Assembly: GCA_050300635.1 (NCBI GenBank)
Contig: JBNKYC010000014.1
Span: 194,175-226,174 of the forward strand
Length of the DNA stretch: 32,000 nucleotides
Source of the DNA: Polyangiaceae bacterium
GTDB taxonomy: Bacteria; Myxococcota_A; Polyangia; Polyangiales; Polyangiaceae
Direction: 5' to 3'
The position numbers were made by a program, and so were the translations under genes. Each line of letters opens with the position of its first letter. Positions within the stretch are counted from its first letter, which is position 1. Below, piece by piece: positions 3,806-19,749 of this stretch. The notes under the pieces are model-generated. The model saw nothing but the letters and a program-made list of their open reading frames with translations, was not told the origin of the DNA and did no database searches.

Positions 3806-3998
3806 TTATCTGAGAAGCACCGAACCAATTGACAGTCCTTTCCGCACGCTCGCAACGGATACAGCCGGCACTTTAGGGTGCAGTATGAGAACGAGAGCCC
3901 AAAAGAGCTGCCCTCAACACGACCCCCGGAGGGGCTGTTAACTACCGGCTAACCTATCTCATCCACTACTTCTACTAATAGCGGAGTTGCGATTGTTC

Positions 3999-4943
3999 TT
4001 AGCTCAGCAAATAGAACGGCACATCTCCGATGGCGATCTTACTTTGCGTGAGGCGGGAGGGATCGCGGCGGAGGAACTCAGGAACTTCGACGGTTCGCTC
4101 GAAGCTCAATCGACGAGGTAGCGATTCATAGAGCGACCTCGGCGGAGGGTCGTTCTGCATTTCTTTGAATCGCAGGCCGCTGGCGAATGTGTGCATGAAG
4201 ATCTTCTTCAATCCGATATCGCTACGAATGAACTGAATCGTCGCGGCGAGCATCGCTTCGGACCACATCCGTGCGTATGGCTGAAAGAGCTTGGCGTACC
4301 AAAGCAGGTGAGCCCGAGTTACGCCCTCGTGCACATGGCCTGAGCCAACCCAGAGCTTCCCGCTACGGCTTCGCCAGGGGTCCTCGGTCTCGACAGCCTC
4401 CCTCACCTCTTTCGCCCAGTCTGATTGGATCTCTTCGATCAGGGCTTCCCCGGTATCGAGGTCGAAATCGATTCGCGCCCAGGCCAGGGTGCTTCCCTCC
4501 CTAGAGTTGGGATGACAGGACCAAGTAAAGAGTGGTTCTTGGGGCCTAAGCAGTCTTCGATACTCGTGCAGGTGTTCCGCGCCGAGGTTCAGTTGGAGAA
4601 CCAGATTGTAGCCTTTTCGCGAGGTTTGCCCCCACGGCTCTCCAGAAGCGCCGCCGTTCCACGACGTCACGCGCAGGCGGAAGTACTTCGTGCCAGAGGG
4701 ACGAAGTAGCTCGAAGGCCGCTGGCCGCACGACCCCATCTGGGACGGTGCGGAGGAACTGGCGAACAGCCGGCGCCTGAAGCAAACGACCGGCACCAGCA
4801 GCGCGGAGCGCTGACACTTTCTGAGGCTCCTTGCCCACCACCTCTTTCAAACGATGGAGGGCAAACATCCCCGGTGCGTACGAAAACACGCGCTTCTCAT
4901 CTTTGAGGCACTCAAGCGCCTCCCTTATCTGCTGCTTGTCCAC
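3999..4943 (-). CDS. Hypothetical protein (314 aa), no family recognised
   Basis: Long ORF with plausible composition. It sits between xis and the SPFH gene. Confidence 0.5.
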   Translation of the reverse strand: MDKQQIREALECLKDEKRVFSYAPGMFALHRLKEVVGKEPQKVSALRAAGAGRLLQAPAVRQFLRTVPDGVVRPAAFELLRPSGTKYFRLRVTSWNGGASGEPWGQTSRKGYNLVLQLNLGAEHLHEYRRLLRPQEPLFTWSCHPNSREGSTLAWARIDFDLDTGEALIEEIQSDWAKEVREAVETEDPWRSRSGKLWVGSGHVHEGVTRAHLLWYAKLFQPYARMWSEAMLAATIQFIRSDIGLKKIFMHTFASGLRFKEMQNDPPPRSLYESLPRRLSFERTVEVPEFLRRDPSRLTQSKIAIGDVPFYLLS

Positions 4944-5007
4944 AAACGCCTCCCTGAGGCGAAGTGGGGCAGCGTCGCGTCACGAAGAACGATGACGCCG
5001 CCCCTTC

Positions 5008-6123
5008 TTACTTCTGATTGACAGCCCCAGATCCCAGGAACTGCGCTGGCACCAAGGAAGAAAGTCCATCGGCACCGACCACCACTCGGACTTCGGCGAT
5101 GTTCTCGGCGATTTCCTTCATGGCTTCGAGCTCCTTGAGACGGAGCAGGACTGGTTCGGCCGCCATGACCTTGGCCGTGTTGGCGAGAGACCGCGTTGCG
5201 GCCGTCTCTTCACGACGGAGAATCACGTTGGCCTGTGCTTCCTTCTCCGCCTCAATGACGCGGTTCAGAAGCACCTTCATTTCACCGGGGAGGACAACGT
5301 CCTTCACACCGATGTGCTCGACGCGAACACCAATGCCCTCAGCAACAGGCAGAACCTGGGCGATCATTGCACGGGTGAGGGCGTCTCGCCCCTCGAGCAG
5401 TGCATCGAGGGTCACGCCAGCGACATAGTCACGGGCTGCCAGCTGTGCAGCAACGTAGACCGAGTCACGAACACTGGTCACCCGGCGGCTCAGGGCAACA
5501 TCCTCGACTGCGTACTCAACAGAAATGCTGAGGCGCAGCGTGACCTTGTCCCGAGTCATGAGTTCCTGACCGGTAATCGCAAGCTCCGTTCGGCGAACAT
5601 CGACCTTGTCGATGACCACCGGACGGTCGACCGTGTTCCAGAACCGGTAGAGACCTGGTTCGAGAACGCGCTCGAGCTTTCCGCTCACCTTCAGAACCCC
5701 ACGTTCGTGCGGCTGAATCGTTGCTTGAGTGTACTGGCCGGTAGGAACCACCCCTTCGAGCTCTGCGGTCAGAGCAGGAAAGTCAGCGCGCGTGTCGAAC
5801 ACTTCGACGCGAACTGAAGGGTCCATCGTCCAAAATCGCGTCACTCCAGAACGGAGAAACTTGACCGGACGCCCTCCAGCAAACAGCACGGCTCGCTCGT
5901 GGTCGGCAACCTGAACCTCAGCGTACCAATCGGAAGGCAGCACAGCTGCGACCTCTGGGTAGGCATCAAAGATCAGCTCGTCGGCCTTGAAGCGCTGCTC
6001 AGAATAACCGCGTCCCCAAAGGGTGTGGCGACCTGGTCCGAGGGCACGCACGGGCAGACTGTTCTTGAACAGCACGACTCGCTCGTTCAGCTTGACTCGT
6101 AGCGTCTTGTATATTCCAAACAT
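5008..6123 (-). CDS. SPFH/band-7 (slipin-like) domain protein
   Basis: The C-terminal half has a typical SPFH signature (VRVEHIGVKDVVLPGEMKVLLNRVIEAEKEAQANVILRREETAATRSLANTAKVM). Confidence 0.75.
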   Translation of the reverse strand: MFGIYKTLRVKLNERVVLFKNSLPVRALGPGRHTLWGRGYSEQRFKADELIFDAYPEVAAVLPSDWYAEVQVADHERAVLFAGGRPVKFLRSGVTRFWTMDPSVRVEVFDTRADFPALTAELEGVVPTGQYTQATIQPHERGVLKVSGKLERVLEPGLYRFWNTVDRPVVIDKVDVRRTELAITGQELMTRDKVTLRLSISVEYAVEDVALSRRVTSVRDSVYVAAQLAARDYVAGVTLDALLEGRDALTRAMIAQVLPVAEGIGVRVEHIGVKDVVLPGEMKVLLNRVIEAEKEAQANVILRREETAATRSLANTAKVMAAEPVLLRLKELEAMKEIAENIAEVRVVVGADGLSSLVPAQFLGSGAVNQK

Positions 6124-6552
6124 GATTCCGATCTCCTTTCATCGAGATTTCTGAGGCAAAGTTCTTGCTTCGAGAGAATGAGCCTCGCGGTCCATTTCGC
6201 CGCCGAGGCCCCAGGCGACGACCTCCACAAGGAGTCGCGCCGTAAAAGTGGAACTCATTCATCTGACGTGGGGAGCGACACGGGCGAACCCGCTGGGCTC
6301 CGCCGCACCGTGTGGACTCGACGGACTCAGGCCCCGAAAGGCCTTCGCTCGCCTGTCGTTCGGGCCGTGCGGGGAGTCGCCTGCCGGGCTGGTCCGAGAG
6401 CGCCTCATTGAGTGAGGCGTCTGTCAGAAAGCTGGGCAGTCGAGTCCGTCGCGGGCGCGAAAGGAGTCGACGTGAGTGCGGAGCAAGGCGAGCGCTCCCC
6501 TCCCCCGTGGGAAGTTGGCGCGCCTCGCCGACGCTGGATGTTTGAGTTCCTG

Positions 6553-6643
6553 GTTTGGGTAATTTCGCTACCTAAAAGCGTTGCCTTTCGGCACAAGGTT
6601 AAAAGCCTTGTTCTCATGTTCTGACCAACTGAACTACAGCCCC
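6553..6643 (-). pseudogene. Decayed tRNA-Lys(UUU)-like element
   Basis: On the minus strand the 5' half is canonical (GGGGCTG TA GTTC AGTTGGTCA GAAC). The anticodon arm is CAAGG-CTTTTAA-CCTTG. Six extra nt precede the anticodon stem, the T loop is GCGAAAT, and only 4 of 7 acceptor pairs form. Confidence 0.3.
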
Positions 6644-6646
6644 TAG

Positions 6647-6728
6647 TGGAACTGACCGGAATCGAACCGGTGACCGTGAGAGTCTGGTGGACGATACGTT
6701 CGCCTAACGGTGACCACACCATCGCTCC
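6647..6728 (-). other. tRNA-like element with a good T arm but no canonical anticodon arm
   Basis: The T arm is ACCGG-TTCGATT-CCGGT. The acceptor pairs at 5 of 7 positions (GGAGCGA/CAGTTCC). I could not fold the interior as a cloverleaf. Confidence 0.25.
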
Positions 6729-6799
6729 TCAGGACACGAACCACGGACACACAAGGGAGACTGCAAAGAGACCCAAGCGCGCGCCGTCGCACTGACTAA

Positions 6800-6878
6800 A
6801 GAGACGAGAGGGAGTCGAACCCTCTACCCGGAAAGCCCGCCCCAGTCCGATTTGCGGTCGGACCAAGGCGGGCTGGAC
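6800..6878 (-). other. tRNA-like element directly downstream of the HNH gene
   Basis: The T arm is GAGGG-TTCGACT-CCCTC. A long hairpin AGCCCGCC..GTCCGA-CCGCAAA-TCGGAC..GGCGGGCT carries a GCA-containing 7-nt loop. No partner for the acceptor 5' strand was found. Confidence 0.3.
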
Positions 6879-7397
6879 TCAGATCATTCCGTAGGCTTCC
6901 AAGTACGGAAGCCATTCTTCCGGGACGCGGCCGCGGCGCGCGTCGACCATCCCAATCGGGAGGGCCTTGGGCCGCACTGGCTCCATCAGCGGGAACATCC
7001 CCGCTTCGTCACAGCTCAGATTGGCCTTCTTGTTGTTGCAACGCTGACACGCAGCAACGATGTTCTCGAACGTTCGAGGCCCGCCGTGACTCCGAGGAAC
7101 CACATGGTCCATCGTGAGATCACTTCCGGGCAGATGAGCTCCGCAGTACTGGCAGCGGAACTTATCGCGGATCTTCACATTGTGGTCCGAGTACTTGATC
7201 CCCTTCTTGAAACGGGGAGTCATGTGCCGCAGGCGAATGACGGCAGGCACGTTCCAGGTCACGGACGGGGAAGAGACCGTCTCTGAATACTCAGCAATGA
7301 CATCGACCGTTTCCTCGTAGGTCATCTTGATTGCGGCCTGCCAAGGAACCACCTTTATCGGGAAGTACCAGGCCGTGAGGAGCAGTGAATTTCGCAT
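6879..7397 (-). CDS. HNH endonuclease (small McrA/COG1403-like)
   Basis: The motif reads CQYCG...LTMDHVVPRSHGGPRTFENIVAACQRCNNKKAN. The start is set at MRNSLLL, with AAGGAGG upstream. The track's longer N-terminus runs into a non-coding repeat. Confidence 0.8.
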   Translation of the reverse strand: MRNSLLLTAWYFPIKVVPWQAAIKMTYEETVDVIAEYSETVSSPSVTWNVPAVIRLRHMTPRFKKGIKYSDHNVKIRDKFRCQYCGAHLPGSDLTMDHVVPRSHGGPRTFENIVAACQRCNNKKANLSCDEAGMFPLMEPVRPKALPIGMVDARRGRVPEEWLPYLEAYGMI

Positions 7398-7432
7398 CAC
7401 GGCCTCCTTTCCTTTGTTGGTGCGATTGACTG

Positions 7433-7560
7433 TTTCTTTCAGGAGGGCAGAGGCCCTCCTCGTCGCGGGAAGTGAATCCCGGCTCCTCACCTCCACCCAA
7501 GCGACGTGCGCTCCGGCGCCTCCCACTTGGTCGGCGGCGGTACTCGCGCTCTCGTCCCGG
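7433..7560 (-). repeat. Copy 1 of a ~125-bp repeated non-coding element (leader-like, ends ~36 nt before the HNH start)
   Basis: About 88% identical to 8692-8818. Minus-strand hairpins GGAGGGC-CTCT-GCCCTCC and CGGGA-TTCACT-TCCCG are present. Confidence 0.7.
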
Positions 7561-7739
7561 CGCTACCGAGCCTCGTCCTGCCGGTCGCGGAAGACGGGCC
7601 CCGACGCTCCCCGGGCGGAAGGGCGCAGGAAACCACCGGCGACTAAGTAGGAGCCGCTGGATTTCCAGCGGAAGGTGGGGAGGAGAAGCGGAGATTCACT
7701 CTCCGCGACGGAGGGGACGCCGTCCCCTCAAAAAACGAG

Positions 7740-7813
7740 TAGAGCACATGGGAGTTGAACCCATCGCAGGTCCCTTATCAGGAGACCCAGATCAAACCGG
7801 ATCGTCGTGCTCA
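7740..7813 (-). tRNA. tRNA-Ile(GAU)
   Basis: Anticodon arm GTCTC-CTGATAA-GGGAC, T arm ATGGG-TTCAACT-CCCAT. The acceptor forms 6 bp with a U1-U72 mismatch. No CCA is encoded. Confidence 0.65.
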
Positions 7814-7814
7814 G

Positions 7815-7962
7815 TGCTGTCGGCGGGAGTCGTGGCCGAGCCCCGCTAGGGGCGAGCCCCACCGAGATAGTGCGATCGAAGAACGCACTATCGAAGGTCA
7901 CCCGCAATGCCGTGCGGCACGCCGTCTCAGGGCGCTGTGTATGCCTGTTCCACCACGACAGC
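7815..7962 (-). tRNA. tRNA-Leu(GAG)-like, abnormally long (148 nt)
   Basis: Perfect 7-bp acceptor GCTGTCG/CGACAGC with A73. Anticodon arm GCGCC-CTGAGAC-GGCGT and a type II variable arm CCGCA-CGGCAT-TGCGG. About 75 extra nt of hairpins precede the 3' strand, including the motif CTCGGCCACGACTCC. Confidence 0.45.
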
Positions 7963-7963
7963 G

Positions 7964-8081
7964 TGGTACACGCCCTCGGATTCGTGGCCGAGGACGTAGT
8001 CCGAGTCCCGCCGAGCGAAGCGACGGCCACCAGACTTCCCGGGCTTAAACCGGGCACCTCTACCGATTGGGTTAGGCGTGC
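7964..8081 (-). tRNA. tRNA-Leu(UAA), long (118 nt), CCA encoded
   Basis: Acceptor GCACGCC/GGCGTGT followed by ACCA. Anticodon arm CCCGG-TTTAAGC-CCGGG. The variable region is 45 nt and the T arm is CTCGG-CCACGAAT-CCGAG with an 8-nt loop. Confidence 0.55.
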
Positions 8082-8085
8082 CGAG

Positions 8086-8167
8086 CGGAAGGTAGAGAAA
8101 TCGAACCACGCACCTCTCGGTGCCCCTGGTTTTCAAAACCAGTTCGCCTCCATAGGCGGTACCTTCC
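8086..8167 (-). tRNA. tRNA-Ser(UGA)
   Basis: Perfect acceptor GGAAGGT/ACCTTCC with G73. Anticodon arm CTGGT-TTTGAAA-ACCAG and variable arm GCACC-GAGA-GGTGC. The T stem has two mismatches. Confidence 0.6.
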
Positions 8168-8169
8168 GG

Positions 8170-8241
8170 ATGAGGTGACAGGAATTGAACCCGCATCGCC
8201 GGGTTCAAAGCCCAGGGTCTTGACCGTTAGACGACACCTCA
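8170..8241 (-). tRNA. tRNA-Gln(UUG)
   Basis: Perfect acceptor TGAGGTG/CACCTCA, D arm GTCT-AACGGTCA-AGAC, anticodon arm CTGGG-CTTTGAA-CCCGG, T arm GCGGG-TTCAATT-CCTGT. Confidence 0.8.
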
Positions 8242-8394
8242 GAAGTTTTCTTCGCTGCGCAGGCAGCGACGCGCTCAGCACCGCCGACGAGCAAGCCCCA
8301 TTGCGAGTCGCCGGAGCGCCCGCGGAGTTGGGGGGAGGCTCACGCAGCGCTCTGCGCAGAGTGAGGGGGGCTGCATCAGCCCCCGATGAAACAG

Positions 8395-8463
8395 TCGCGA
8401 CGGAAGTATTCGAAACTTCATGCGAGCCCGTATGAAAGGCTGCTCCGACCCTCGGTCGCCGCG
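8395..8463 (-). tRNA. tRNA-Met(CAU), short (69 nt) with a reduced D arm
   Basis: Acceptor CGCGGCG/CGTCGCG, anticodon arm AGCCT-TTCATAC-GGGCT, T arm GAAGT-TTCGAAT-ACTTC. The D region is only CCGA-GGG-TCGG plus a 3-nt connector. A competing 10-bp hairpin lies at 8447-8477. Confidence 0.5.
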
Positions 8464-8540
8464 GTTGCGAGGGTCGGTAATGCTCCGATCTGATCTCCGG
8501 GCCATGAACCCGACGAGCCACTTTTGCTCCATCCTCGCGG

Positions 8541-8613
8541 CGTTTCGGCCAGGACTCGAACCTGAATTTCAGCCTTCGCAGGGCTGCGTCCTGTCCAGTT
8601 GGACGACCAGAAC
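8541..8613 (-). tRNA. tRNA-Arg(GCG)
   Basis: D arm GTCC-AACTGGACA-GGAC, anticodon arm CAGCC-CTGCGAA-GGCTG, T arm TCAGG-TTCGAGT-CCTGG. The acceptor has one mismatch. Confidence 0.75.
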
Positions 8614-8618
8614 AATCG

Positions 8619-8691
8619 CGTTCTCGGCAGGAGTCGAACCTGCACCCATCCGCTTAGAAGGCGGCTGCCCGTCCAATCGAGCCTCGAGAAC
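8619..8691 (-). tRNA. tRNA-Arg(UCU)
   Basis: Perfect acceptor GTTCTCG/CGAGAAC, anticodon loop CTTCTAA, T arm GCAGG-TTCGACT-CCTGC. Confidence 0.8.
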
Positions 8692-8818
8692 TTGTCTTTT
8701 CAGGAGGGCAGAGGCCCTCCTCGTCGTCGGGAGTGAATCCCGACTCCTCACCTCCACCCCTGCGACGTGCGCTCCGGCACCTCCCACTTGGTCGGTGGCG
8801 GTGCTGGCGCTCTCATCA
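8692..8818 (-). repeat. Copy 2 of the ~125-bp repeated element (its end abuts the 5' end of tRNA-Arg(UCU))
   Basis: It aligns with 7433-7560. The internal hairpin is TCGGGA-TTCAC-TCCCGA, with changes at the stem ends that extend the pairing relative to copy 1. Confidence 0.7.
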
Positions 8819-8932
8819 TCGCTTCGCGGTGCTTCGTCCTGGCGGGCGCCGGGCATAAGGGCAGGCCGCAGAACCCGTGAGGGTTCGAGGACCTCGACAA
8901 AAGTTACGGCACGCAGCACACCCGTGGAGGAG

Positions 8933-8983
8933 AGCCGAAGAGGTTTCGCCCTCACTTGTGATGGGGCGGAAACTCGTAGGCCT
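8933..8983 (-). repeat. Copy A of a ~50-nt conserved motif
   Basis: GCCGAAGAGGTTTCGCCCTCACTTGTGATGGGGCGGAAACTCGTAGGCC, compared with 10740-10789. Confidence 0.6.
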
Positions 8984-9058
8984 CCCCCACGGGCAAGCAG
9001 AGTGAAGCGCCATCGTGCACAGTTCGTCGATAAAGGCCGACGGACACGCTGCGCTCGG

Positions 9059-9126
9059 AGATCCGAGTGAGAGTCAAACTCACCCTCGCTGCTTTGCAAC
9101 CAGCGTCGTCCTCGGGACATCGGATC
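9059..9126 (-). tRNA. Short (68 nt) tRNA with a GCA-containing anticodon loop (Cys-like; identity ambiguous)
   Basis: Perfect acceptor GATCCGA/TCGGATC, D region GTCC-CGA-GGAC, anticodon stem CGCTG/CAGCG with the 9-nt loop GTTGCAAAG, a 3-nt variable region, and T arm GTGAG-TTTGACT-CTCAC. Confidence 0.45.
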
Positions 9127-9131
9127 ATTCG

Positions 9132-9203
9132 TACAAGTGGAGGGAATCGAACCCCCGTATCCTGGGTGGAAGCCAGGCATCTTGGCCGCTGGATCACACT
9201 TGC
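9132..9203 (-). tRNA. tRNA-Gly(UCC)
   Basis: Acceptor GCAAGTG/CACTTGT, anticodon arm CCTGG-CTTCCAC-CCAGG, T arm GGGGG-TTCGATT-CCCTC. Confidence 0.75.
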
Positions 9204-9204
9204 T

Positions 9205-9280
9205 TGGAGCCTCTATCGGGATTCAAACCCGAGTCTCTGCCTTACCGGGGCAGCGTTCTGCTCGACTGAACTATGGAGGC
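9205..9280 (-). tRNA. tRNA-Thr(GGU), CCA encoded, C at position 33
   Basis: D arm GTTC-AGTCGAGCA-GAAC, anticodon arm CTGCC-CCGGTAA-GGCAG, T arm TCGGG-TTTGAAT-CCCGA, 3' end TAGAGGC-T-CCA. Confidence 0.7.
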
Positions 9281-9284
9281 ACGG

Positions 9285-9351
9285 AGCCTTATCCCGGAAT
9301 CGAACCGAGTCAGATTGAGTACGAAACAATCCACTTTCCAAAAGCTAAGAC
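9285..9351 (-). tRNA. tRNA-Thr(CGU), short (67 nt) with a reduced D arm
   Basis: Anticodon arm ATTGT-TTCGTAC-TCAAT with a U-U closing pair, T arm CTCGG-TTCGATT-CCGGG, D region CTTT-TGG-AAAG plus TGG. The acceptor pairs at 6 of 7 positions. Confidence 0.5.
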
Positions 9352-9360
9352 AGCACTTTG

Positions 9361-9433
9361 TACACGCTCCCAGATTCGAACTGGGACCTCTCGGGTCTGA
9401 GCCGAGCGCCTCTGCCAGTTGGGCTAAGCGTGC
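9361..9433 (-). tRNA. tRNA with Leu anticodon CAG but a type I (4-nt variable loop) body
   Basis: It folds as GCACGCT TA GCCC AACTGGCAG AGGC G CTCGG-CTCAGAC-CCGAG AGGT CCCAG-TTCGAAT-CTGGG AGCGTGT A. The 5' half is a close paralogue of the Leu(UAA) gene. Confidence 0.65.
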
Positions 9434-9435
9434 AT

Positions 9436-9507
9436 TGGTGGAGCCGTCGGGAATCCAACCCGCAAGCTCTCTGTGCAAGAGAGAGCCGTAGCGCACTACA
9501 CAACCCC
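9436..9507 (-). tRNA. tRNA-Cys(GCA), compact, CCA encoded
   Basis: Anticodon arm CTCTC-TTGCACA-GAGAG. The acceptor GGGGTTG/CGGCTCC has three G-U pairs. D region GTAG-TGCG-CTAC, 3-nt variable region, T loop TTGGATT. Confidence 0.55.
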
Positions 9508-9512
9508 ATCAG

Positions 9513-9578
9513 CAGACCCACAAGGAATCGAACCCTGTCGACAACGGATTTGGAGTCCGTCCGGCGGCCGTCCGATCC
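9513..9578 (-). tRNA. tRNA-Trp(CCA)-like, very short (66 nt)
   Basis: Anticodon arm ACGGA-CTCCAAA-TCCGT and T arm CAGGG-TTCGATT-CCTTG. Only 11 nt lie between the acceptor and the anticodon stem. The acceptor is weak, with three G-U pairs and one mismatch. Confidence 0.4.
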
Positions 9579-9583
9579 CAATC

Positions 9584-9621
9584 GTGCAATGCGAAACGGA
9601 CGCGAGTCCGTGAAGCTGCAC
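9584..9621. repeat. Left copy of a ~38-nt inverted repeat pair (partner at 11308-11346)
   Basis: The reverse complement GTGCAGCTTCACGGACTCGCGTCCGTTTCGCATTGCAC aligns with GTGCAGCTTCACGGACTAGCGTCCGTTCCGCTTTGTCAC. The first 17 nt are identical. Confidence 0.75.
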
Positions 9622-9636
9622 ATGCGATACTACTGA

Positions 9637-9704
9637 CTAAATAAAGGCGCGTCGCGTGTCCTGCGGTAGCAGGCCCCTTTCAATCGCACCGATCCGCGAC
9701 GCGC
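9637..9704 (-). terminator. Terminator-like structure just after tRNA-His
   Basis: On the minus strand a 10-bp stem GCGCGTCGCG/CGCGACGCGC encloses a CCTGC-TACC-GCAGG hairpin and is followed by CTTTATTT. The 38-nt loop is atypical for a terminator. Confidence 0.35.
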
Positions 9705-9705
9705 G

Positions 9706-9773
9706 GGGTGTTGCTGAGGATCGAACTCAATAACCCGGGTCACAACCGAGTTTGCCCCCAGGGCGACAACACC
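9706..9773 (-). tRNA. tRNA-His(GUG), short (68 nt) with a reduced D arm
   Basis: Perfect acceptor GGTGTTG/CAACACC with C73. Anticodon arm CTCGG-TTGTGAC-CCGGG, T arm TTGAG-TTCGATC-CTCAG, D region GCCC-TGG-GGGC plus AAA, 3-nt variable region. No G-1 is encoded. Confidence 0.55.
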
Positions 9774-9774
9774 A

Positions 9775-9861
9775 TGGCGGAAGCTGGACGAGTCGAACGT
9801 CATTCCTTTCGGAACGCACCGATTAGCAGTCGGGCCAAGCGCCACCGCCTGTTCAGCTTCC
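9775..9861 (-). tRNA. tRNA-Ser(GCU), CCA encoded
   Basis: Perfect acceptor GGAAGCT/AGCTTCC followed by GCCA. Anticodon loop CTGCTAA, variable arm TTCC-GAAA-GGAA, T loop TTCGACT. Confidence 0.7.
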
Positions 9862-9865
9862 GTAG

Positions 9866-9937
9866 TCGGAGACCTGGGGGTCGAACCCAGCAGCACACGG
9901 TCCCAAGCCGCGCGGCACACCCCGTGCCTTGACTCCG
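9866..9937 (-). tRNA. tRNA-Pro(UGG)
   Basis: C1-G72 and A73. Anticodon arm CGCGG-CTTGGGA-CCGTG, T arm CTGGG-TTCGACC-CCCAG, compact D arm GGCAC-GGGGT-GTGCC. Confidence 0.7.
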
Positions 9938-9942
9938 AATAG

Positions 9943-10015
9943 TGGATCCCCTCAGTTTCGAACTGAGCTCTCCTGTTCTTCAGACAGGCGCTTTCACCAG
10001 ATTAGCTTGAGATCC
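9943..10015 (-). tRNA. tRNA-Phe(GAA)
   Basis: It folds as GGATCTC AA GCTA ATCTGGTGA AAGC G CCTGT-CTGAAGA-ACAGG AGAG CTCAG-TTCGAAA-CTGAG GGGATCC A. Confidence 0.8.
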
Positions 10016-10019
10016 GTAG

Positions 10020-10092
10020 TACTCGGGGCCGGGAACGATCCAGCAACCGTCTCCTTGTAAGGGAGCTGCGCTACCAATTGCGCCACCCGAGC
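10020..10092 (-). tRNA. tRNA-Val(UAC) with an unusual T loop
   Basis: D arm GCGC-AATTGGTA-GCGC, anticodon loop CTTACAA, T arm GCTGG-ATCGTTC-CCGGC (A54/U58 in place of U54/A58), acceptor GCTCGGG/CCCGAGT. Confidence 0.7.
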
Positions 10093-10093
10093 T

Positions 10094-10169
10094 TGGCGCT
10101 TCGTACGGGAATCGAACCCGTCTCCAAGTGATCGACAATCACCCTGCCTCCCCAGCGGCATCACGAAGC
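10094..10169 (-). tRNA. tRNA-Asp(GUC), CCA encoded
   Basis: Perfect acceptor GCTTCGT/ACGAAGC followed by GCCA. D arm TGCC-GCTGGGGA-GGCA, anticodon loop TTGTCGA, T arm ACGGG-TTCGATT-CCCGT. Confidence 0.85.
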
Positions 10170-10173
10170 ATTC

Positions 10174-10311
10174 ACGCGCCGTAGGGTCACAGACCCGAAG
10201 GCCCGTAAGAAACATGGCGCGTAGCAATTCTGCCCACCAGACCGGAGTGTTCCGTCCTCACCCTTCCGGGGGGCGGAACACGCAGGTCAATGTGTGGCAA
10301 GCAGAATGCAG
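10174..10311 (-). other. Two stem-closed structured elements between tRNA-Asp and tRNA-Glu (not foldable as tRNAs)
   Basis: At 10174-10222 the ends ACGCGCC/GGCGCGT pair around GGCC-TTCG-GGTC and GGGTC-TGT-GACCC hairpins. At 10223-10311 the ends GCATTCTGC/GCAGAATTGC pair around an 8-bp GTGTTCCG/CGGAACAC hairpin. Confidence 0.3.
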
Positions 10312-10383
10312 CACCCCCTGTCGGTATCGATCCGACTCTTTCAGGTTGAAAACCTGACGACCTAGCCAGTAGTCGAAGGGGGC
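10312..10383 (-). tRNA. tRNA-Glu(UUC) with an unusual T loop
   Basis: It folds as GCCCCCT TC GACT ACTGGCTA GGTC G TCAGG-TTTTCAA-CCTGA AAGA GTCGG-ATCGATA-CCGAC AGGGGGT G. Confidence 0.75.
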
Positions 10384-10392
10384 ATAGTTGAC

Positions 10393-10461
10393 TCGCGTGG
10401 CTACGCGACCCGCCTTCGGCGGGCTCGTCGACCTTCATGGACTCCGTCCACCAAGGTGGAC
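10393..10461. other. Cluster of three GC-rich hairpins, including a tandem GTGGACGGAGTCCAC motif
   Basis: The hairpins are TCGCGT-GGCT-ACGCGA, CCCGCC-TTC-GGCGGG and GTCCAC-CAAG-GTGGAC. The 13-mer GGACTCCGTCCAC occurs twice (10439-10451 and 10458-10470). Confidence 0.5.
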
Positions 10462-10475
10462 TCCGTCCACTACGG

Positions 10476-10556
10476 TTCCGGGGGCAGGAATCGTGGCCGA
10501 GCGAAGCGAGCCCCGCCGAGCGGAGCGAAGGCCACCCGCACACGTCGGGCCCCAGG
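10476..10556 (-). other. tRNA-like element sharing the CTCGGCCACGATTCC motif of the long Leu genes
   Basis: Ends CCTGGGG/CCCCGGA pair at 6 of 7 positions, with a C1-A72 mismatch. It has a CCCG-ACGTGTG-CGGG hairpin and a GCGGG/CCTGC stem around an internal GTGGCC...GGCCAC hairpin. No D arm is present. Confidence 0.25.
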
Positions 10557-10562
10557 AGCTTG

Positions 10563-10634
10563 CTTCGGGGATAGGACTCGAACCTATATGAACTCGCTTA
10601 ACAGGCGAGTGCCTTACCAATCGGCCACCCCGAA
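10563..10634 (-). tRNA. tRNA-Asn(GUU)
   Basis: Perfect acceptor TTCGGGG/CCCCGAA with G73. Anticodon arm CTCGC-CTGTTAA-GCGAG, T arm ATAGG-TTCGAGT-CCTAT. Confidence 0.85.
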
Positions 10635-10739
10635 TCATCGCCACACCCTCCTCGGCTAATTGACTTCCAAGCGGCCGCAGGACCTTCGGGTCCGAGGACC
10701 AAAAGAAACAGTTGGCGGGAAGCACACTCAATCAAGAAG

Positions 10740-10789
10740 GCCGAAGAGTACCGCCCTCACTCTGTGATGGGGCGAGACTCGTAGGCCCG
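10740..10789 (-). repeat. Copy B of the ~50-nt conserved motif
   Basis: GCCGAAGAGTACCGCCCTCACTCTGTGATGGGGCGAGACTCGTAGGCC, compared with 8933-8983. Confidence 0.6.
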
Positions 10790-10891
10790 GATGTGGCGAG
10801 CAAAAAATTGCTGAGTATTCAGTTGTCACGGATCAGGAGGAGCGAATGCTCCTGTGACTTGCGAAACGAAGCGTTTCACCTCGTTTCGCAG

Positions 10892-10963
10892 TGGATCTGG
10901 AGGGACTCGAACCCTCGTCCAACCGGGTAAGAACCGGCGACTCTGCCGCTGAGTTACAGATCC
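10892..10963 (-). tRNA. tRNA-Lys(CUU)
   Basis: Perfect acceptor GGATCTG/CAGATCC, D arm ACTC-AGCGGCA-GAGT, anticodon arm GCCGG-TTCTTAC-CCGGT, T arm GAGGG-TTCGAGT-CCCTC. Confidence 0.85.
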
Positions 10964-10967
10964 AAGG

Positions 10968-11005
10968 CCCGGATGAGGTGCCTCCTTGTGTTCACCTCAT
11001 CCGGG
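10968..11005. other. 13-bp perfect hairpin between the two Lys tRNA genes
   Basis: CCCGGATGAGGTG-12 nt-CACCTCATCCGGG. Confidence 0.7.
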
Positions 11006-11036
11006 GAAACGACACTGGATGTGCCGTGGAATTGAG

Positions 11037-11109
11037 TGGGACCAGGGGGCTTCGAACCCCCACCCCCTCGATTAAAAGTCGAGTGCGCTACCAGTTACGC
11101 CACAGTCCC
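11037..11109 (-). tRNA. tRNA-Lys(UUU)
   Basis: It folds as GGGACTG TG GCGT AACTGGTA GCGC A CTCGA-CTTTTAA-TCGAG GGGGT GGGGG-TTCGAAG-CCCCC TGGTCCC A. Confidence 0.85.
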
Positions 11110-11196
11110 AAGTCCAAGCTTGTGACTGCGTTTCTTCATTCGATACATAGTTCTCTCCTGTTCGCGCTCGAGATCGAGCGCGCAATTCACCCTTCG

Positions 11197-11279
11197 TGGA
11201 GCCCCCGAGATTCGAACTCGGCAAGCGCGCTGCGCAGCGGGGTTACAATCCGCTTGAGGTCCCGAGCCTCATGAGCTCC
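11197..11279 (-). tRNA. tRNA-Tyr(GUA), type II
   Basis: Acceptor GGAGCTC/GGGCTCC with A73. D arm GAGG-CTCGGGA-CCTC, anticodon loop TTGTAAC, variable arm GCGC-AGC-GCGC, T arm CCGAG-TTCGAAT-CTCGG. Confidence 0.75.
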
Positions 11280-11307: not shown

Positions 11308-11346
11308 GTGCAGCTTCACGGACTAGCGTCCGTTCCGCTTTGTCAC
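11308..11346. repeat. Right copy of the ~38-nt inverted repeat pair (partner at 9584-9621)
   Basis: See 9584-9621. It contains the hairpin ACGGAC-TAGC-GTCCGT. Confidence 0.75.
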
Positions 11347-11657
11347 TCCAAATCGCTGAGGGCCGCCTTGGTTTCCCAGGGCGGCCCTTCTGCGACACGA
11401 ATGTCTCAGTGGAATGCCAGCCTAGGTATTCTCTCCCCAGGGAGAGCCCAAATCCGTAGCTAGGATGAAGCCCGTGGGCTGTTCACACGCGGACAGCGCC
11501 AATGCACCAACGAGATCCTTCTCGTTCAGATACGCTGCACCTAAATCAAGCGCAGTAGGCCGAAGCTCTGCTTGCGTACTTCTATGGTTCGTCGGTTTCG
11601 TCATCGAGCTTGTGCTCCTAGTTCGGACACCCTCATTGGCATCACGGCGGGGCACAA

Positions 11658-11673
11658 TGCGAGGGGCGTGCCA
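11658..11673 (-). promoter_or_regulatory. Candidate sigma54 (-24/-12) promoter pointing into the tRNA array
   Basis: The minus strand reads TTGGCACGCCCCTCGCATT, i.e. TGGCAC-N5-TCGCA. It lies between the rtcR stop (11755) and tRNA-Tyr (11279). Confidence 0.5.
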
Positions 11674-11727
11674 ACTCTTCTGAACTGAGCTTTTGCCGAC
11701 AAAACTGAAGTTGCATCGCAGTTCGAC

Positions 11728-11743
11728 ATATCTGTACAGATAT
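11728..11743. promoter_or_regulatory. 16-bp perfect palindrome, candidate enhancer-binding (UAS) site
   Basis: ATATCT-GTAC-AGATAT, centred about 64 bp upstream of the -24 element at 11668-11673. It has the same half-site and spacer length as 13340-13355. Confidence 0.45.
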
Positions 11744-11754
11744 TTTTCTATCTC

Positions 11755-13338
11755 TTAGGATATGTCATCCCAGGACAGAGAGTATCGGTTCAAGTACTTC
11801 CGCACCCGGTCTGCGTCATTGACCGACGAACGCCTCTTTCGGGATTCGGCGAATAGAGTGCGGCCTGCCTCCGAAAGAGAGTTTGAGTCCACGCACACCC
11901 GCAGAACCTCGGCCAGCTGAACCCGGTCAAACAGATCAAGGTCGGCGATGACATCGGCTCCGAGGAACCGCGAGAGGATATCGTCCCCCTCCTCACCGCC
12001 TGGCCGCTCCCACGACTCTTTCAGGCGTTCGATCTCTTCCTTGACACCAGCCGCTGTGATCCTGCCCCCCTCTGCGAGGGTCGCCATGCGCTCAAAAGCG
12101 GCACTGTAGTCGCGAAAGTTGCCAGACCAGCTAGTGGACGGCGCCTTGGCAAAATCGAGAAATAGCTTACGGGCCTCACGGTTCATGGTGACGCGTTCGC
12201 CGTGCGTTTCTGCCCATCGCTCAGTTTCGTATTCGAGGTTGGGCTCCATATCCTCGGGCCTATCCCTCAGAGCGGGGAGATGGAACGCCCACAGATTGAT
12301 GCGAGCGAGAAGGTCATCGCGAAAAGTCCCCTGAGCCACAGAGCCGCGCAGATCGCGGTTGGTCCCGCTGATCAGCTGGAAGTCGCTCTCCGCCTCTCGA
12401 TCGGCGCCAACAGGAAGGAACCTCTTCTCCTCGATGGCGCGAAGGAGCATGGCCTGCTCCTCAAGTCCGAGCTCGCCAATTTCATCGAGAAAGAGGATGC
12501 CGCCGTTGGCCTCACGGAGGAGACCCTCACGTGGGCCTGACGCGCCAGTGAACGCGCCCTTCTTATGCCCAAAGAGGGCACTCATGGCGCCGTCGCCTCG
12601 GATAGTGGCACAGTTCACCTCGACAAAGGGCCCGGAAACCTGGCCGCGCAGCTTCTTTAGCTCATAGACCCGTCGCGCCAAATGGCTCTTGCCAGCGCCG
12701 GTCGGACCCATCAAGAGCAGGGGGGACTTCGATGCAATGGCGACCTGCTCGATGCGGTCGATTTGCTTGTTGAACGCCTTGTTCTTTGTAGCGATTCCTG
12801 ACTTGAGGAAGTCCCGGCTCTCCCGCTGCTCGAGTTTGAACCGAGACGCGAGCTTGTCGTACTTGGACAGGTCAAGATCGATGACGCTATAGGAGCCAAC
12901 ATTCCCCTTTTGCCGGGATGGACTCGTCTGAAGCAGCTGACCTGGGATGTGGCGAGACTCCGTCAGCAAGAACTGGCAAATCTGAGCTACGTGCGTCCCG
13001 GTCGTGATGTGGACAAGGTACCTTTCCTTGCTCTGCTTGAACGAGTACTTGGAGGCAAAGTCGTGGAGCGCTGCATAGACCTCCTCAAAGTCCCAGGGGT
13101 CGGTGGTCTCAAGGTGATGCGGACACACCTGGGTTTCGGGCGAGACGGAACGAATATCCTTTGTGATCTGCTCAGCCAGCTTCTCGAACTTCGACTGGTA
13201 CAGAAGCTCGAACCGGTCGACGACCAAGTCCTCGTGCCGACACACGTCAACGGTCGGACGCCACTGAAGCCAACGGTCGCCCCGCTTCTTCATGGCATCC
13301 AGAGTCACGCCCAACATCCCGATGACGACAGTTTTCAT
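11755..13338 (-). CDS. rtcR: Sigma54-dependent transcriptional activator RtcR (CARF-like N-domain, AAA+ domain, C-terminal DNA-binding region)
   Basis: Walker A LLMGPTGAGKSHLA and the GAFTGA motif (HKKGAFTGA). The N-terminal ~185 aa resemble the RtcR sensor domain. The gene is divergent from rtcBA. Confidence 0.85.
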   Translation of the reverse strand: MKTVVIGMLGVTLDAMKKRGDRWLQWRPTVDVCRHEDLVVDRFELLYQSKFEKLAEQITKDIRSVSPETQVCPHHLETTDPWDFEEVYAALHDFASKYSFKQSKERYLVHITTGTHVAQICQFLLTESRHIPGQLLQTSPSRQKGNVGSYSVIDLDLSKYDKLASRFKLEQRESRDFLKSGIATKNKAFNKQIDRIEQVAIASKSPLLLMGPTGAGKSHLARRVYELKKLRGQVSGPFVEVNCATIRGDGAMSALFGHKKGAFTGASGPREGLLREANGGILFLDEIGELGLEEQAMLLRAIEEKRFLPVGADREAESDFQLISGTNRDLRGSVAQGTFRDDLLARINLWAFHLPALRDRPEDMEPNLEYETERWAETHGERVTMNREARKLFLDFAKAPSTSWSGNFRDYSAAFERMATLAEGGRITAAGVKEEIERLKESWERPGGEEGDDILSRFLGADVIADLDLFDRVQLAEVLRVCVDSNSLSEAGRTLFAESRKRRSSVNDADRVRKYLNRYSLSWDDIS

Positions 13339-13339
13339 G

Positions 13340-13355
13340 TTATCCGTGAGGATAT
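13340..13355. promoter_or_regulatory. Dyad related to 11728-11743, candidate UAS
   Basis: TTATCC-GTGA-GGATAT, centred about 105 bp upstream of the rtcB -24 element. It directly abuts the rtcR start codon. Confidence 0.45.
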
Positions 13356-13450
13356 GCTCTTATCTCCTTGAATCCAGGCACGAAGACCCCAATCAGAGTT
13401 CTCTGCATTATTTCAGCGATTTGCGCGCGAGTCGGTCGAGGCGCTGAACT

Positions 13451-13466
13451 TGGCACAACGTCTGCA
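13451..13466 (+). promoter_or_regulatory. Sigma54 (-24/-12) promoter of the rtcBA operon
   Basis: TGGCAC-AACGT-CTGCA in the rtcR-rtcB intergenic region, oriented toward rtcB. Confidence 0.7.
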
Positions 13467-13609
13467 AAGTCTCGGTCACGCTTCTGAAGCTCAACGCGGC
13501 AGAGCACCGGAAAAACACAGGACAAGCCGGGCCTCGAAGGAGGCATGTGGAACCCAGGCGACTGGGGAGCGGCAACGGTTAACAGATTGCACCGAACAGG
13601 GTCCGAGAG

Positions 13610-13685
13610 GGTTCTGAAGGGAAGCAGGTTCCCGAAAGGCCGCCTCATCCACGTGGAGTGGGTTCGATCCCCACCAGAAGCACCA
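13610..13685 (+). ncRNA. tRNA-like element in the rtcB 5' leader (ends in ACCA; no anticodon stem)
   Basis: It folds as GGTTCTG AA GGGA-AGCAGGT-TCCC ... GTGGG-TTCGATC-CCCAC CAGAAGC A CCA. The 24 nt in the anticodon position (GAAAGGCCGCCTCATCCACGTGGA) form no 5-bp stem. A perfect alternative 5' strand GCTTCTG lies at 13483-13489 near the predicted TSS. Confidence 0.5.
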
Positions 13686-13723
13686 GCCATCAAGTTGATT
13701 GTCACTTAGACTGGAGAGAAGAA

Positions 13724-14947
13724 ATGAGTACCTACGAACTGCGCGAACCTCACGGCGGCGTTCCGATCAAGACCTGGACCAAGGGCGTGCCCGTGGAACC
13801 AGAGGCTGTTGATCAGCTCACCAACATCGCGCGCCTGCCCATCGTCCACAAGTGGGTCGCGGCCATGCCGGACGTTCACCTGGGGATCGGTGCGACCGTA
13901 GGCAGCGTTATCCCCACCGTGGGAGCGGTGATTCCTGCAGCAGTCGGCGTGGATATCGGCTGCGGAATGATGGCCGTGGAAACCACGCTGAAGGCCAGCG
14001 ATCTTCCAGATAACCTCGGCCCCATGCGAAGCACCATCGAACGAGCAGTCCCCCATGGGCGCGGACGGTCCGGGCGTCGCGGGGACAAAGGTTCTTGGAG
14101 CGACGTTCCGAACCGCGTCGGAAAGGTCTGGAAAGGGCTAGAATCTGGCTTCAAAGCCATCGTCGACAAGCATCCAGGCGTCGAGAAGAGCAACAATGTC
14201 GTTCATCTCGGGACGCTCGGAACCGGAAACCACTTCATCGAGGTTTGCCTCGATGAAAAGGACAACGTCTGGTTCATGCTGCACAGTGGCTCACGCGGAG
14301 TAGGAAACCGCATCGGTTCGCACTTCATCGCCCTGGCGAAGAAGGACATGCAGCGTCATCAACAGCATCTGCCCGACGCCAACCTTTCCTACTTTGAGGA
14401 AGGGAGCGAACACTTCCACGACTACGTGGAAGCCGTCGAGTGGGCGCAGAGCTTCGCGCGTCATAACCGAGAACTCATGATGCACGCTGTACTCGATTCG
14501 GTTCGCCGGTTGCCCAAGTTTCCGTCTTTCCAAACGGCAAAGAGCGCCGTCAACTGCCACCACAACTACGTTTCACGCGAGTTCCACTACGGAAAGAACG
14601 TGTTCGTGACCCGCAAGGGAGCTGTGCATGCAGGTGAAGGCGTCCTGGGCATCATCCCCGGAAGCATGGGAGCTCGCTCCTACATTGTCCGGGGAAAGGG
14701 AAACCCAGAAAGCTTCTGTAGCTGTAGTCACGGAGCGGGGCGCGTGATGTCCCGTACCAAGGCAAAGAAGAAGTTCTCCTTGGAGGACCATCGCCGAGCG
14801 ACTGAAGGCGTCGAATGCCGCAAGGACAAGGACGTCATCGACGAAACGCCTGGTGCCTACAAGGACATCGACAAGGTGATGGAGGCCCAGAGTGATCTGG
14901 TCGAAATCCTCCACACGCTCAAGCAGGTGGTCTGCGTGAAGGGGTGA
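13724..14947 (+). CDS. rtcB: RNA-splicing ligase RtcB (3'-phosphate/5'-hydroxyl RNA ligase)
   Basis: Typical RtcB sequence blocks (IARLPIVHKWVAAMPDVHLGIGATVGSV, GTLGTGNHFIEV, HSGSRGVGN, NCHHNY, SCSHGAGR). The start is set at MSTYELREP with GGAGAG upstream. The track's 13658 start overlaps the tRNA-like element. Confidence 0.92.
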   Translation: MSTYELREPHGGVPIKTWTKGVPVEPEAVDQLTNIARLPIVHKWVAAMPDVHLGIGATVGSVIPTVGAVIPAAVGVDIGCGMMAVETTLKASDLPDNLGPMRSTIERAVPHGRGRSGRRGDKGSWSDVPNRVGKVWKGLESGFKAIVDKHPGVEKSNNVVHLGTLGTGNHFIEVCLDEKDNVWFMLHSGSRGVGNRIGSHFIALAKKDMQRHQQHLPDANLSYFEEGSEHFHDYVEAVEWAQSFARHNRELMMHAVLDSVRRLPKFPSFQTAKSAVNCHHNYVSREFHYGKNVFVTRKGAVHAGEGVLGIIPGSMGARSYIVRGKGNPESFCSCSHGAGRVMSRTKAKKKFSLEDHRRATEGVECRKDKDVIDETPGAYKDIDKVMEAQSDLVEILHTLKQVVCVKG

Positions 14948-19675: not shown

Positions 19676-19749
19676 AATGTACCTCACCCTCTCATGTCGA
19701 AGGAGGGTAGGAGTTTCGACTGCATGCCTGCAAGGGCTCAAGCGGCCAA

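Follow-up and report, generated by a model that had tools for sequence, protein, structure and literature searches.

Six tRNA genes with miniature D arms in a myxobacterial tRNA array downstream of rtcR

Can a bacterial transfer RNA (tRNA) work with its D arm reduced to a hairpin of 11 nucleotides (nt)? The question is raised by six short genes on the chromosome of a Polyangiaceae bacterium (GenBank assembly GCA_050300635.1, contig JBNKYC010000014.1). They lie in a 32,000-nt stretch (forward-strand positions 194,175–226,174 of the contig), which is called the window below and whose numbering is used for all its features, and they belong to a dense tRNA array. An initial annotation, made from the sequence of the window alone, had described them as miniature tRNAs and had argued that the recurrence of one pattern in six specificities speaks against random decay. 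The six genes are real and share an architecture that is not random; unrelated arrays conserve the class, and covariation maintains the miniature D stem. Judged from the sequence, they are probably genuine, structurally reduced compact-core tRNA genes in a laterally mobile, phage-type array, which would be transcribed, processed, charged and used as spare decoders.

Detection and architecture of the compact genes

Both strands of the window were scanned with a structural descriptor. On the acceptor side it called for a 7-base-pair (bp) acceptor stem with at least six pairs and a connector of 0–2 nt; the D arm had to consist of a fully paired stem of 3–4 bp and a loop of 3–5 nt. It further specified a 5-bp anticodon stem, U33, a purine at position 37 (R37), a variable loop of 3–6 nt, a 5-bp T stem, and a T loop of the form TTNRANN. 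Exactly six matches and no others were obtained (8395–8463, 9059–9126, 9285–9351, 9439–9507, 9513–9578, and 9706–9773), while 100 dinucleotide-preserving shuffles gave a mean of 0.01 matches per window. The genes were thus recovered where the initial annotation had placed them, with one non-standard architecture common to several specificities; all six are on the minus strand, which had been left unstated. ARAGORN with default settings detected three of the six (Thr-CGU, Ala-UGC, and His-GUG), and its mitochondrial mode detected all of them, as had been predicted. Across 110 sequences, a D loop shorter than 7 nt occurred in just 8 of 174 ARAGORN tRNAs, five of which came from the array or from its sister locus in a related genome (L001, described below).

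The Rfam tRNA model (RF00005) passed 12 array members and none of the compact genes. Thr-CGU scored 23.4 bits against a cut-off of 29, the other five had no RF00005 match even at E ≤ 10, and Trp matched just the tRNA-Sec model (21.3 bits). Standard D arms revealed by covariance models had been named at the outset as grounds for abandoning the idea of a compact class; Rfam scans at the gathering threshold and at E ≤ 10 gave no standard-D-arm alignment for the six genes. A MAFFT alignment prepared for a covariance model of the compact class was structurally wrong, and the descriptor scan with its shuffle controls was used instead.

These results bear on the possibility that the short D arms are an artefact, being either ordinary D arms read in another register or chance tRNA-like matches. 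The default ARAGORN register for Thr and Ala does differ from the one noted at first, and the mitochondrial mode gives some spurious matches in GC-rich DNA. However, the 11–16 nt available between acceptor and anticodon stems are too short for a D loop of 7–11 nt, the shuffled windows were nearly free of matches, no standard Rfam alignment exists, and the register is fixed by compensatory changes. We therefore attach almost no probability to this explanation.

The six genes are listed below, with spaces separating the structural segments and hyphens separating the stem strands from the loops.

Positions 8463–8395, minus strand: Met-type (CAU), 69 nt; CGCGGCG A CCGA-GGG-TCGG AGC AGCCT-TTCATAC-GGGCT CGCAT GAAGT-TTCGAAT-ACTTC CGTCGCG A
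Positions 9126–9059, minus strand: Cys(GCA), 68 nt; GATCCGA T GTCC-CGA-GGAC GA CGCTG-G-TTGCAAA-G-CAGCG AGG GTGAG-TTTGACT-CTCAC TCGGATC T
Positions 9351–9285, minus strand: Thr(CGU), 67 nt; GTCTTAG CTTT-TGG-AAAG TG GATTG-T-TTCGTAC-T-CAATC TGA CTCGG-TTCGATT-CCGGG ATAAGGC T
Positions 9507–9436, minus strand: Ala(UGC), 69 nt plus encoded CCA; GGGGTTG T GTAG-TGCG-CTAC GG CTCTCT-CTTGCAC-AGAGAG CTT GCGGG-TTGGATT-CCCGA CGGCTCC A CCA
Positions 9579–9513, minus strand: Trp(CCA), damaged; anticodon and T arms intact, 5' acceptor strand and D arm replaced by an insertion
Positions 9773–9706, minus strand: His(GUG), 68 nt; G GTGTTGT C GCCC-TGG-GGGC A ACTCGG-TTGTGAC-CCGGGT TAT TGAG-TTCGATC-CTCA GCAACAC C

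By the descriptor, the genes have the 7-bp acceptor stem, the 5-bp anticodon stem and 7-nt anticodon loop with U33 and R37, and the 5-bp T stem with a TTCRANN-type loop of canonical tRNAs, with single mismatches in Thr, Cys, Ala, and Trp and a nucleotide other than C at position 56 in Ala and Cys. Their departure from the canonical form lies in the D loop, normally of 7–11 nt, and in the two connector nucleotides 8 and 9. The compact D arm consists of a 4-bp stem with a loop of 3–4 nt, and the connector is 0–2 nt long (in the best descriptor parse, 1 nt in Met, Cys, Ala, and Trp, none in Thr, and 2 nt in His). The D-arm strings quoted in the initial annotation (those of the Met, Cys, Thr, Ala, and His lines above) were all correct. 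Ala, His, Cys, and Thr have a 26:44 pair, which extends the anticodon helix to 6 bp and leaves 3–4 variable nucleotides; Met lacks this pair.

Two identities had to be revised. The gene at 9436–9507, taken for Cys in the initial annotation, is Ala(UGC), as indicated by the anticodon loop CUUGCAC, G3:U70, A73, and the encoded CCA. The actual Cys(GCA) is the "GCA-loop gene" at 9059–9126, which has the discriminator U73, the standard one for CysRS. Together with the encoded G-1:C73 of His, G73 and the CCA anticodon of Trp, and the CAU of Met, the identity elements outside the D arm are intact in terms of established synthetase recognition. The numbering of G-1 in His is supported by a viral homologue (in L111, below) that encodes CCA directly after C73. 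Among further peculiarities, Met has C1-G72; Cys has the T loop TTTGACT (U56) and a G31/G39 mismatch; Ala has the T loop TTGGATT (G56) and an anticodon helix of 6–8 bp; and His has an anticodon helix of 6–7 bp and a T stem of 4 bp. The acceptor and T helices of Ala and His can also be drawn as 8/4. Thr(CGU) lacks the 8/9 connector and contains the mismatches U31/U39 and G7/A66. The window anticodons are thus CAU, GCA, CGU, UGC, CCA, and GUG; there is no CUA, and GG and TTC-type loops are present.

The short linker in place of a D arm that had been described for Trp was seen, but as a product of damage rather than as a variant of the architecture. An insertion of approximately 60–75 nt, not present in L001, replaced the 5' part of the gene and so produced the odd linker; the copy in L001 (5364–5434) is intact and has the D arm GCAA-TGG-TTGC. 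Within the region 9566–9643, the insertion contains one arm of a 35-nt inverted repeat, in which 9587–9621 pairs with 11308–11342 (91% complementary), the latter arm being situated just upstream of the first array tRNA (Tyr).

In the minimum-energy structures computed with RNAfold, Met, Ala, and His form cloverleaves of four arms that include the mini D hairpin, and so do three homologues described below (Thr of L090, His of L111, and Trp of L001). Cys adopted the cloverleaf in the centroid fold. The window Thr(CGU) folded weakly and its minimum-energy structure was not a cloverleaf; the window Trp gave no cloverleaf fold (z = +0.54). Overall, four of the window copies look intact (Met, Cys, Ala, and His), whereas Thr(CGU) is marginal and Trp is damaged.

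All compact genes bearing C56 have GG in their D loops of 3–5 nt. In the two window genes without C56, the loops match differently: the D loop TGCG and T loop TTGGATT of Ala give C19:G56, and CGA and TTTGACT of Cys give A19:U56. The chance of both having the matching dinucleotide was roughly estimated at 2%. Because the mini D loop always holds a G and the complement of T-loop nucleotide 56, the G18-Ψ55 and 19:56 contacts of the elbow are probably kept.

Homologues, covariation, and the sister locus

Unrelated metagenomic arrays were gathered by a scan for the conserved Lys T arm, and phage contigs of IMG/VR by patterns that left the D arm free; the descriptor was then run on both sets. Compact genes were found at the following loci.

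L090: Thr(CGU) at 9072–9138, 67 nt, no connector, D arm CGGT-TGG-ACCG, same U31/U39 mismatch; also Trp
L111, a 182-kb viral contig: His at 3328–3395, D arm GCTC-TGG-GAGC; Thr(CGU) at 791–858, D arm CTGA-ATGG-TCAG; also Thr(GGU) and Met
L147: Ala at 6793–6860, D arm CTAA-TGGG-TTAG, G3:U70; Met with C1-G72 and the loop UUCAUAC, both shared with the window Met
L118: Cys with a 5-nt D loop, a looser case and the sole homologue found for the compact Cys
L126–L135: phage Trp family of at least 10 genes, with A8 and the D arm GGCU-N5-AGCC

Compact CAU tRNAs occur in L111, L118, L129, and L147, with C1-G72 in the last two of these and the loop UUCAUAC in L147. BLAST with one compact phage Trp gene matched tRNA-Trp features in approximately 168 mycobacteriophage records. 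The sole record inspected among them, tRNA-Trp of Mycobacterium phage Yucca (KX721255.1, 91597–91667), comprises 68 nt plus CCA and has the 5' part GGGTCTG T GCAC-AGG-GTGC. The initial view that short D regions are known mainly from organelles overlooked such GenBank-annotated phage tRNAs, as well as the pyrrolysine tRNA (tRNAPyl). Compact tRNAs are nevertheless a minority class: with default ARAGORN settings, a D loop of 5 nt or less was present in approximately 2.5% of 326 tRNAs from the metagenome and IMG/VR loci.

Other searches returned little. Exact-core scans with the Cys and His cores had no match in the viral contigs, an exact scan with the Ala 3' half had none in the metagenome contigs, and BLAST with the compact His of L111 and with the window Cys had none either. 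BLAST with the window Met gave only a marginal partial match, and BLAST of the whole array against phages and plasmids recovered canonical members only. A BLAST match of the Ala 3' half to the 3' end of a phage transfer-messenger RNA was ascribed to shared Ala acceptor features and not to homology.

The mini D stem was paired in 68 of 68 cells across the homologue sets, and changes on both sides of a pair were found at three of the four pairs in Thr, three of four in Trp, and one of four in His; covariation of this stem in related sequences had been proposed as a check in the initial annotation. The remaining stems covaried as tRNAs should. In a gap-free alignment of eight phage Trp genes, pairing was 97% and the covariation score was 0.815, compared with 0.22 in shuffled alignments, none of 500 shuffles reaching the observed value; shifting the 3' partners lowered pairing to 42–51%.

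The sister locus L001 belongs to a Polyangiaceae metagenome-assembled genome whose RtcR, the regulator encoded next to the array, is 94% identical in protein sequence. At 4181–7083 it contains the same array in the same gene order with all six compact genes. Met (98.6%), Cys (100%), Ala (97%, with differences confined to the variable loop), and His (97%) are 97–100% identical between the two loci, as are most canonical members. In the acceptor stem of Thr(CGU), pair 4:69 changes from U-A in the window to C-G in L001 and pair 6:67 from A-U to G-C. These changes are compensatory and fix the register at 9285–9351; the ARAGORN register for this gene (9283–9354) was rejected in its favor. The anticodon-stem pair 28:42 of Trp also covaries between the loci. 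Gln, Asn, the second Met, Thr-CGU, and Trp are much more diverged between window and L001 than neighboring genes, and this uneven divergence suggests recent lateral exchange combined with gene-by-gene replacement within arrays.

Recurrence in unrelated arrays and phages, together with compensatory changes, indicates that the class is evolutionarily maintained and is not a product of random decay. The opposite explanation is that the genes are decaying pseudogenes, in which relaxed selection on a redundant array let D-loop deletions pile up in disused members. Several observations fit it: the window Trp is demonstrably damaged, two Leu genes are interrupted and one remnant is truncated, stem mismatches are present in Thr, Cys, and the L001 His, the array is mostly or completely gone from relatives, and all six genes fail the Rfam tRNA model. 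However, decay would not be expected to produce the same architecture in the same isoacceptors of unrelated arrays and phages with all stems kept paired, nor, by random deletion, perfectly paired 4-bp hairpins in five of six genes. It also does not account for the conservation of GG in D loops of 3–5 nt, for positions 19 and 56, which appear to co-vary, for the intact identity elements, or for the four amino acids covered in the array by compact genes alone. Decay certainly applies to the window Trp and the two Leu genes and possibly to the window Thr(CGU); on the sequences compared, it fails to account for a class that recurs and covaries, and for the class we regard it as unlikely. The initial argument from recurrence therefore stands for the class, with the L001 and phage homologues and their covariation behind it, and does not extend to the window Trp, which is damaged; Thr is weak.

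The array, its neighborhood, and its possible function

The compact genes are embedded in a tRNA array, situated on the chromosome between rtcR and a Band_7 gene. This mobile array beside rtcR and rtcBA had been missed as a context in the initial annotation. The main features of the region are as follows.

Positions 7739–11279, minus strand: tRNA array from Tyr-GUA to Ile-GAU, approximately 25 recognizable genes, two interrupted Leu genes, and remnants
Positions 6879–7526, minus strand: HNH endonuclease gene (Pfam HNH, E = 1.7e-16), directly after the last array tRNA
Positions 11755–13338, minus strand: rtcR, sigma-54 activator of the RNA-repair operon (Pfam RtcR and Sigma54_activat), directly upstream of the array
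Positions 13658–14947, plus strand: rtcB, divergent from rtcR
Positions 15000–16028, plus strand: rtcA, divergent from rtcR
Positions 17763–18896 and 18893–19741, minus strand: two adjacent RlaP-family genes ("RNA repair pathway DNA polymerase beta family"), near rtcBA

ARAGORN with default settings found 20 tRNA genes within 7739–11279, all on the minus strand, and its relaxed and mitochondrial settings added the compact Met(CAU), a second CAU tRNA, Cys(GCA), Trp(CCA), and Ser(GCU). With approximately 25 genes plus the two interrupted ones in 3,541 bp, the density is approximately 7 tRNA genes per kb. Counting the compact genes, the array covers all 20 amino acids (Trp by a copy that is damaged in the window and intact in L001), and for His, Ala, Cys, and Trp the compact gene is the sole one in the array. 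Such arrays are already known as tRNA array units or L-arrays, the former being defined as having 20 or more tRNA genes with no fewer than 2 per kb (PMC4758250).

A sigma-54-type promoter was found at 13451–13466, upstream of rtcB. This was the sole match of the scan, which found none upstream of the array; a simple sigma-70 promoter scan upstream of the array found nothing. The RlaP-family pair extends the RNA-repair gene neighborhood around rtcBA. Integrase and Y2-type transposase genes are also present in the window, farther from the array. Between rtcR and the first tRNA there is a 130-nt element (11359–11488, minus strand) that is 80–94% conserved in relatives with or without the array. 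A GC-rich hairpin, GGGCCGCC...GGCGGCCC, forms its end, and the element may act as the terminator of rtcR or as a regulatory RNA. A 152-nt direct repeat with 85% identity has one copy over the start of the HNH gene and its upstream region (7437–7588) and the other in a long spacer inside the array (8698–8849). It may be a relic of movement of the endonuclease gene within the array.

A search anchored on RtcR, which covered 80 genome loci and 9 contigs, placed the window among Polyangiaceae-like Myxococcota and found the same array just in L001. A short array homologous to it is present in L003, where His is a normal tRNA of 75 nt, and the other loci have a PcfJ gene or remnants in its place. 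The corresponding regions of close relatives, which carry a PcfJ-domain gene, are as follows.

L081, positions 3097–4434: PcfJ-domain gene region in place of the array
L085, positions 11602–12879: PcfJ-domain gene region in place of the array
L002, positions 13200–14350: region in place of the array

L002 has a single tRNA-Lys and scraps of array spacer where the window has its array. Judged from these loci, gain and loss are concentrated at a hot spot that lies between rtcR and Band_7.

In cyanobacteria, L-arrays stay silent unless translation is inhibited and share their regulation with rtcB; they stand in variable or mobile contexts with RNA-processing genes such as rtcB nearby. In Anabaena, 23 of the 26 tRNAs were charged in vivo and the array is genetically linked to rtcB (PMC8421152). 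The window array resembles them in its placement on one strand, in its approximately 27 genes in 3.5 kb, in its near-complete amino-acid set, and in its mobile or variable context, and also in the terminal HNH gene, the Leu tRNAs with a short variable loop, and the proximity of rtcB. The sequence of the Anabaena array likewise has the one-strand layout, an adjacent HNH gene, and short Leu tRNAs. It differs in that its D loops are all 7–11 nt, whereas here six of approximately 27 genes are compact and four amino acids depend on them; further differences are the myxobacterial host and the position directly downstream of rtcR.

Compact cores as such have been described elsewhere. The tRNAPyl and the mammalian mitochondrial tRNASer(UCN) share a "type I" compact core, in which the connector has 0–1 nt, the D loop is small, the anticodon stem has 6 bp, and the variable loop has 3 nt (PMC7609411). 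Like the mitochondrial tRNASer(UCN), the window genes keep the D-loop GG (or a co-varying equivalent) and a TTC-type T loop; unlike both, they have D loops of 3–4 nt instead of 4–5 nt, six ordinary specificities, and a bacterial or phage array setting in place of an organelle or a dedicated orthogonal pair. The likeness to tRNAPyl is in the compact core alone, since that tRNA has the CUA anticodon, lacks G18G19 and T-Ψ-C, and has PylRS as its partner. The phage genes (Yucca Trp; His, Thr, and Met of L111; Ala and Met of L147; the IMG/VR Trp genes) have the same isoacceptors and architecture but occur as scattered single members, whereas here they are concentrated in a chromosomal array. The D-armless and armless tRNAs of metazoan mitochondria, which rely on co-evolved mitochondrial factors, have neither the D stem nor the contact between D and T loops, whereas the genes described here have a covarying 4-bp D stem and GG. 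Both are miniaturized and deviate from the cloverleaf on the D side (PMC6158502; bioRxiv 10.64898/2026.06.12.731814). The 8-bp acceptor and 4-bp T stem that can be drawn for Ala and His recall allo-tRNAs (PMC5389517), which differ in being Ser/Sec-like with a long variable arm and an ordinary or long D stem; the variable loops here are of 3–5 nt and the identities are others. No description of D-arm compaction in phage or array tRNAs as a class was found in the literature searched. Compact-core tRNAs are already present, unremarked, in phage annotations, and the array itself is of a known kind.

As working tRNA genes, the compact members would share one polycistronic precursor transcript with the other array genes, from which RNase P and 3' processing enzymes would excise them. 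Host synthetases would charge the products, which would serve on the ribosome as spare decoders beside the canonical array members. We infer transcription, processing, charging, and use from the intact identity elements and from the absence of any other array gene for His, Ala, Cys, and Trp. More speculatively, given the rtc neighborhood and the published work on L-arrays and phage tRNAs, the array might hold tRNAs in reserve for times when tRNAs are damaged or translation is under stress. When defense nucleases cleave host tRNAs, those of phages can take their place (PMC10264068, PMC11555353, PMC11464382), and mycobacterial array units have been discussed as anti-defense devices (PMC12803027).

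The same neighborhood allows a non-translational function, in which the genes encode tRNA mimics acting as decoys or sponges for tRNA-targeting nucleases or as sources of cyclic-phosphate fragments that activate RtcR. The array is directly downstream of rtcR and beside rtcBA, array tRNAs have been proposed to sponge toxin RNases (PMC8421152), the phage tRNAs just mentioned counter tRNA-cleaving defenses, and shortened D arms might alter nuclease recognition. However, a decoy would not need the identity elements and correct anticodon loops (U33, R37) that are kept here, and the compact genes complete a decoding set for 20 amino acids. Their phage homologues, moreover, are not linked to rtc genes, and the array has no sigma-54 promoter upstream. 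We consider the mimic explanation improbable.

A more far-reaching version of the translational reading would see the compact tRNAs as a selected class of phages and mobile arrays that spans many specificities and functions on ordinary ribosomes, with the 18:55 and 19:56 contacts kept by a new core geometry. The D arm would then be adaptive, for example by allowing escape from nucleases or by needing no D-loop modification, and the array would be the replacement arm of an Rtc-centered tRNA-damage response. Taken as a whole, this combination seems doubtful.

Several observations weigh against functional tRNA genes. There is decay in the array itself, as seen in the disrupted Trp, the two interrupted Leu genes, the 7:66 and 31:39 mismatches of Thr, and G31/G39 of Cys; in L001, His and Thr each have one broken anticodon-stem pair. 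The arrays of window and L001 are 91–100% identical, compared with 79% for rtcR and 85% for the downstream genes (DNA; 11361–13376 and 4959–7428). Since the array is closer than its flanks, the likeness of the two loci reflects recent common origin as much as selection, and this common origin is probably due to lateral exchange. The array was lost in the close relatives L002, L081, and L085 and is therefore dispensable. The only L-array studied experimentally, that of Anabaena, has no compact D arms, and the reach of a 3-nt D loop to the T loop is geometrically unproven. With these points taken into account, genuine compact tRNA genes remain the probable explanation.

Other unusual array tRNAs and implications of the compact class

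Compactness of the D arm is not the only oddity of the array. Two segments on the minus strand, at approximately 7975–8084 and 7825–7962, are counterparts of the intact Leu(UAA) and Leu(GAG) of L001 with insertions of 44 and 66 nt, both of which interrupt the T loop precisely between T54 and C56. Another related insert, of 40 nt, was found in the T arm of a truncated tRNA remnant at approximately 10470–10561. The inserts begin with GRCC(T/G)TCG and end with CTCGGCCA, and may represent a small element targeting T loops. An intron-like reading of the Leu inserts is conceivable, rtcB being next door; bulge-helix-bulge introns were rejected, as the motif was absent from the RNAfold structures.

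Ser(UGA) and Ser(GCU) (8085–8167 and 9775–9861, minus strand) both seem to combine an acceptor stem of 8 bp with a T stem of 4 bp, an 8/4 arrangement like that of allo-tRNAs. Ser(GCU) was missed by ARAGORN with default settings, and Ser(UGA) had just a weak tRNA-Sec match in Rfam (36.8 bits). The second CAU tRNA (8466–8538, minus strand) has a normal D arm, a T loop AGCATTA without T-Ψ-C, and, like initiators, an anticodon stem whose base is formed by three G-C pairs. Its odd T arm is conserved, since the changes in D stem and T stem relative to L001 are compensatory. Bacterial Leu tRNAs normally have a long variable arm; Leu tRNAs of 74–78 nt with short variable loops are present in the window (9360–9433), in L001 (6686–6759 and 7008–7083), and in the Anabaena array (L154, 1054–1590). 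In phage Yucca (L136), a gene at 2691–2764 is annotated in GenBank as "tRNA-Pyl (cta)" and would read amber codons; it is located approximately 1.1 kb downstream of the compact tRNA-Trp and adjoins a peptidyl-tRNA hydrolase gene.

Standard covariance-model pipelines miss all six compact genes, and if the compact tRNAs are in use, the decoding capacity of arrays and phages is systematically undercounted. If the compact tRNAs were not charged, they would represent ordinary gene decay in a dispensable array. If they are charged and used, bacterial ribosomes, EF-Tu, RNase P, and at least five to six synthetases would accept an 11-nt D-arm hairpin, a tolerance so far documented mainly for organelles and tRNAPyl, and the genes would offer natural scaffolds for minimal or orthogonal tRNAs. 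With an almost full set of spare tRNAs encoded directly downstream of rtcR and next to rtcBA, the connection suspected to exist between array tRNAs and responses to tRNA damage becomes directly testable.

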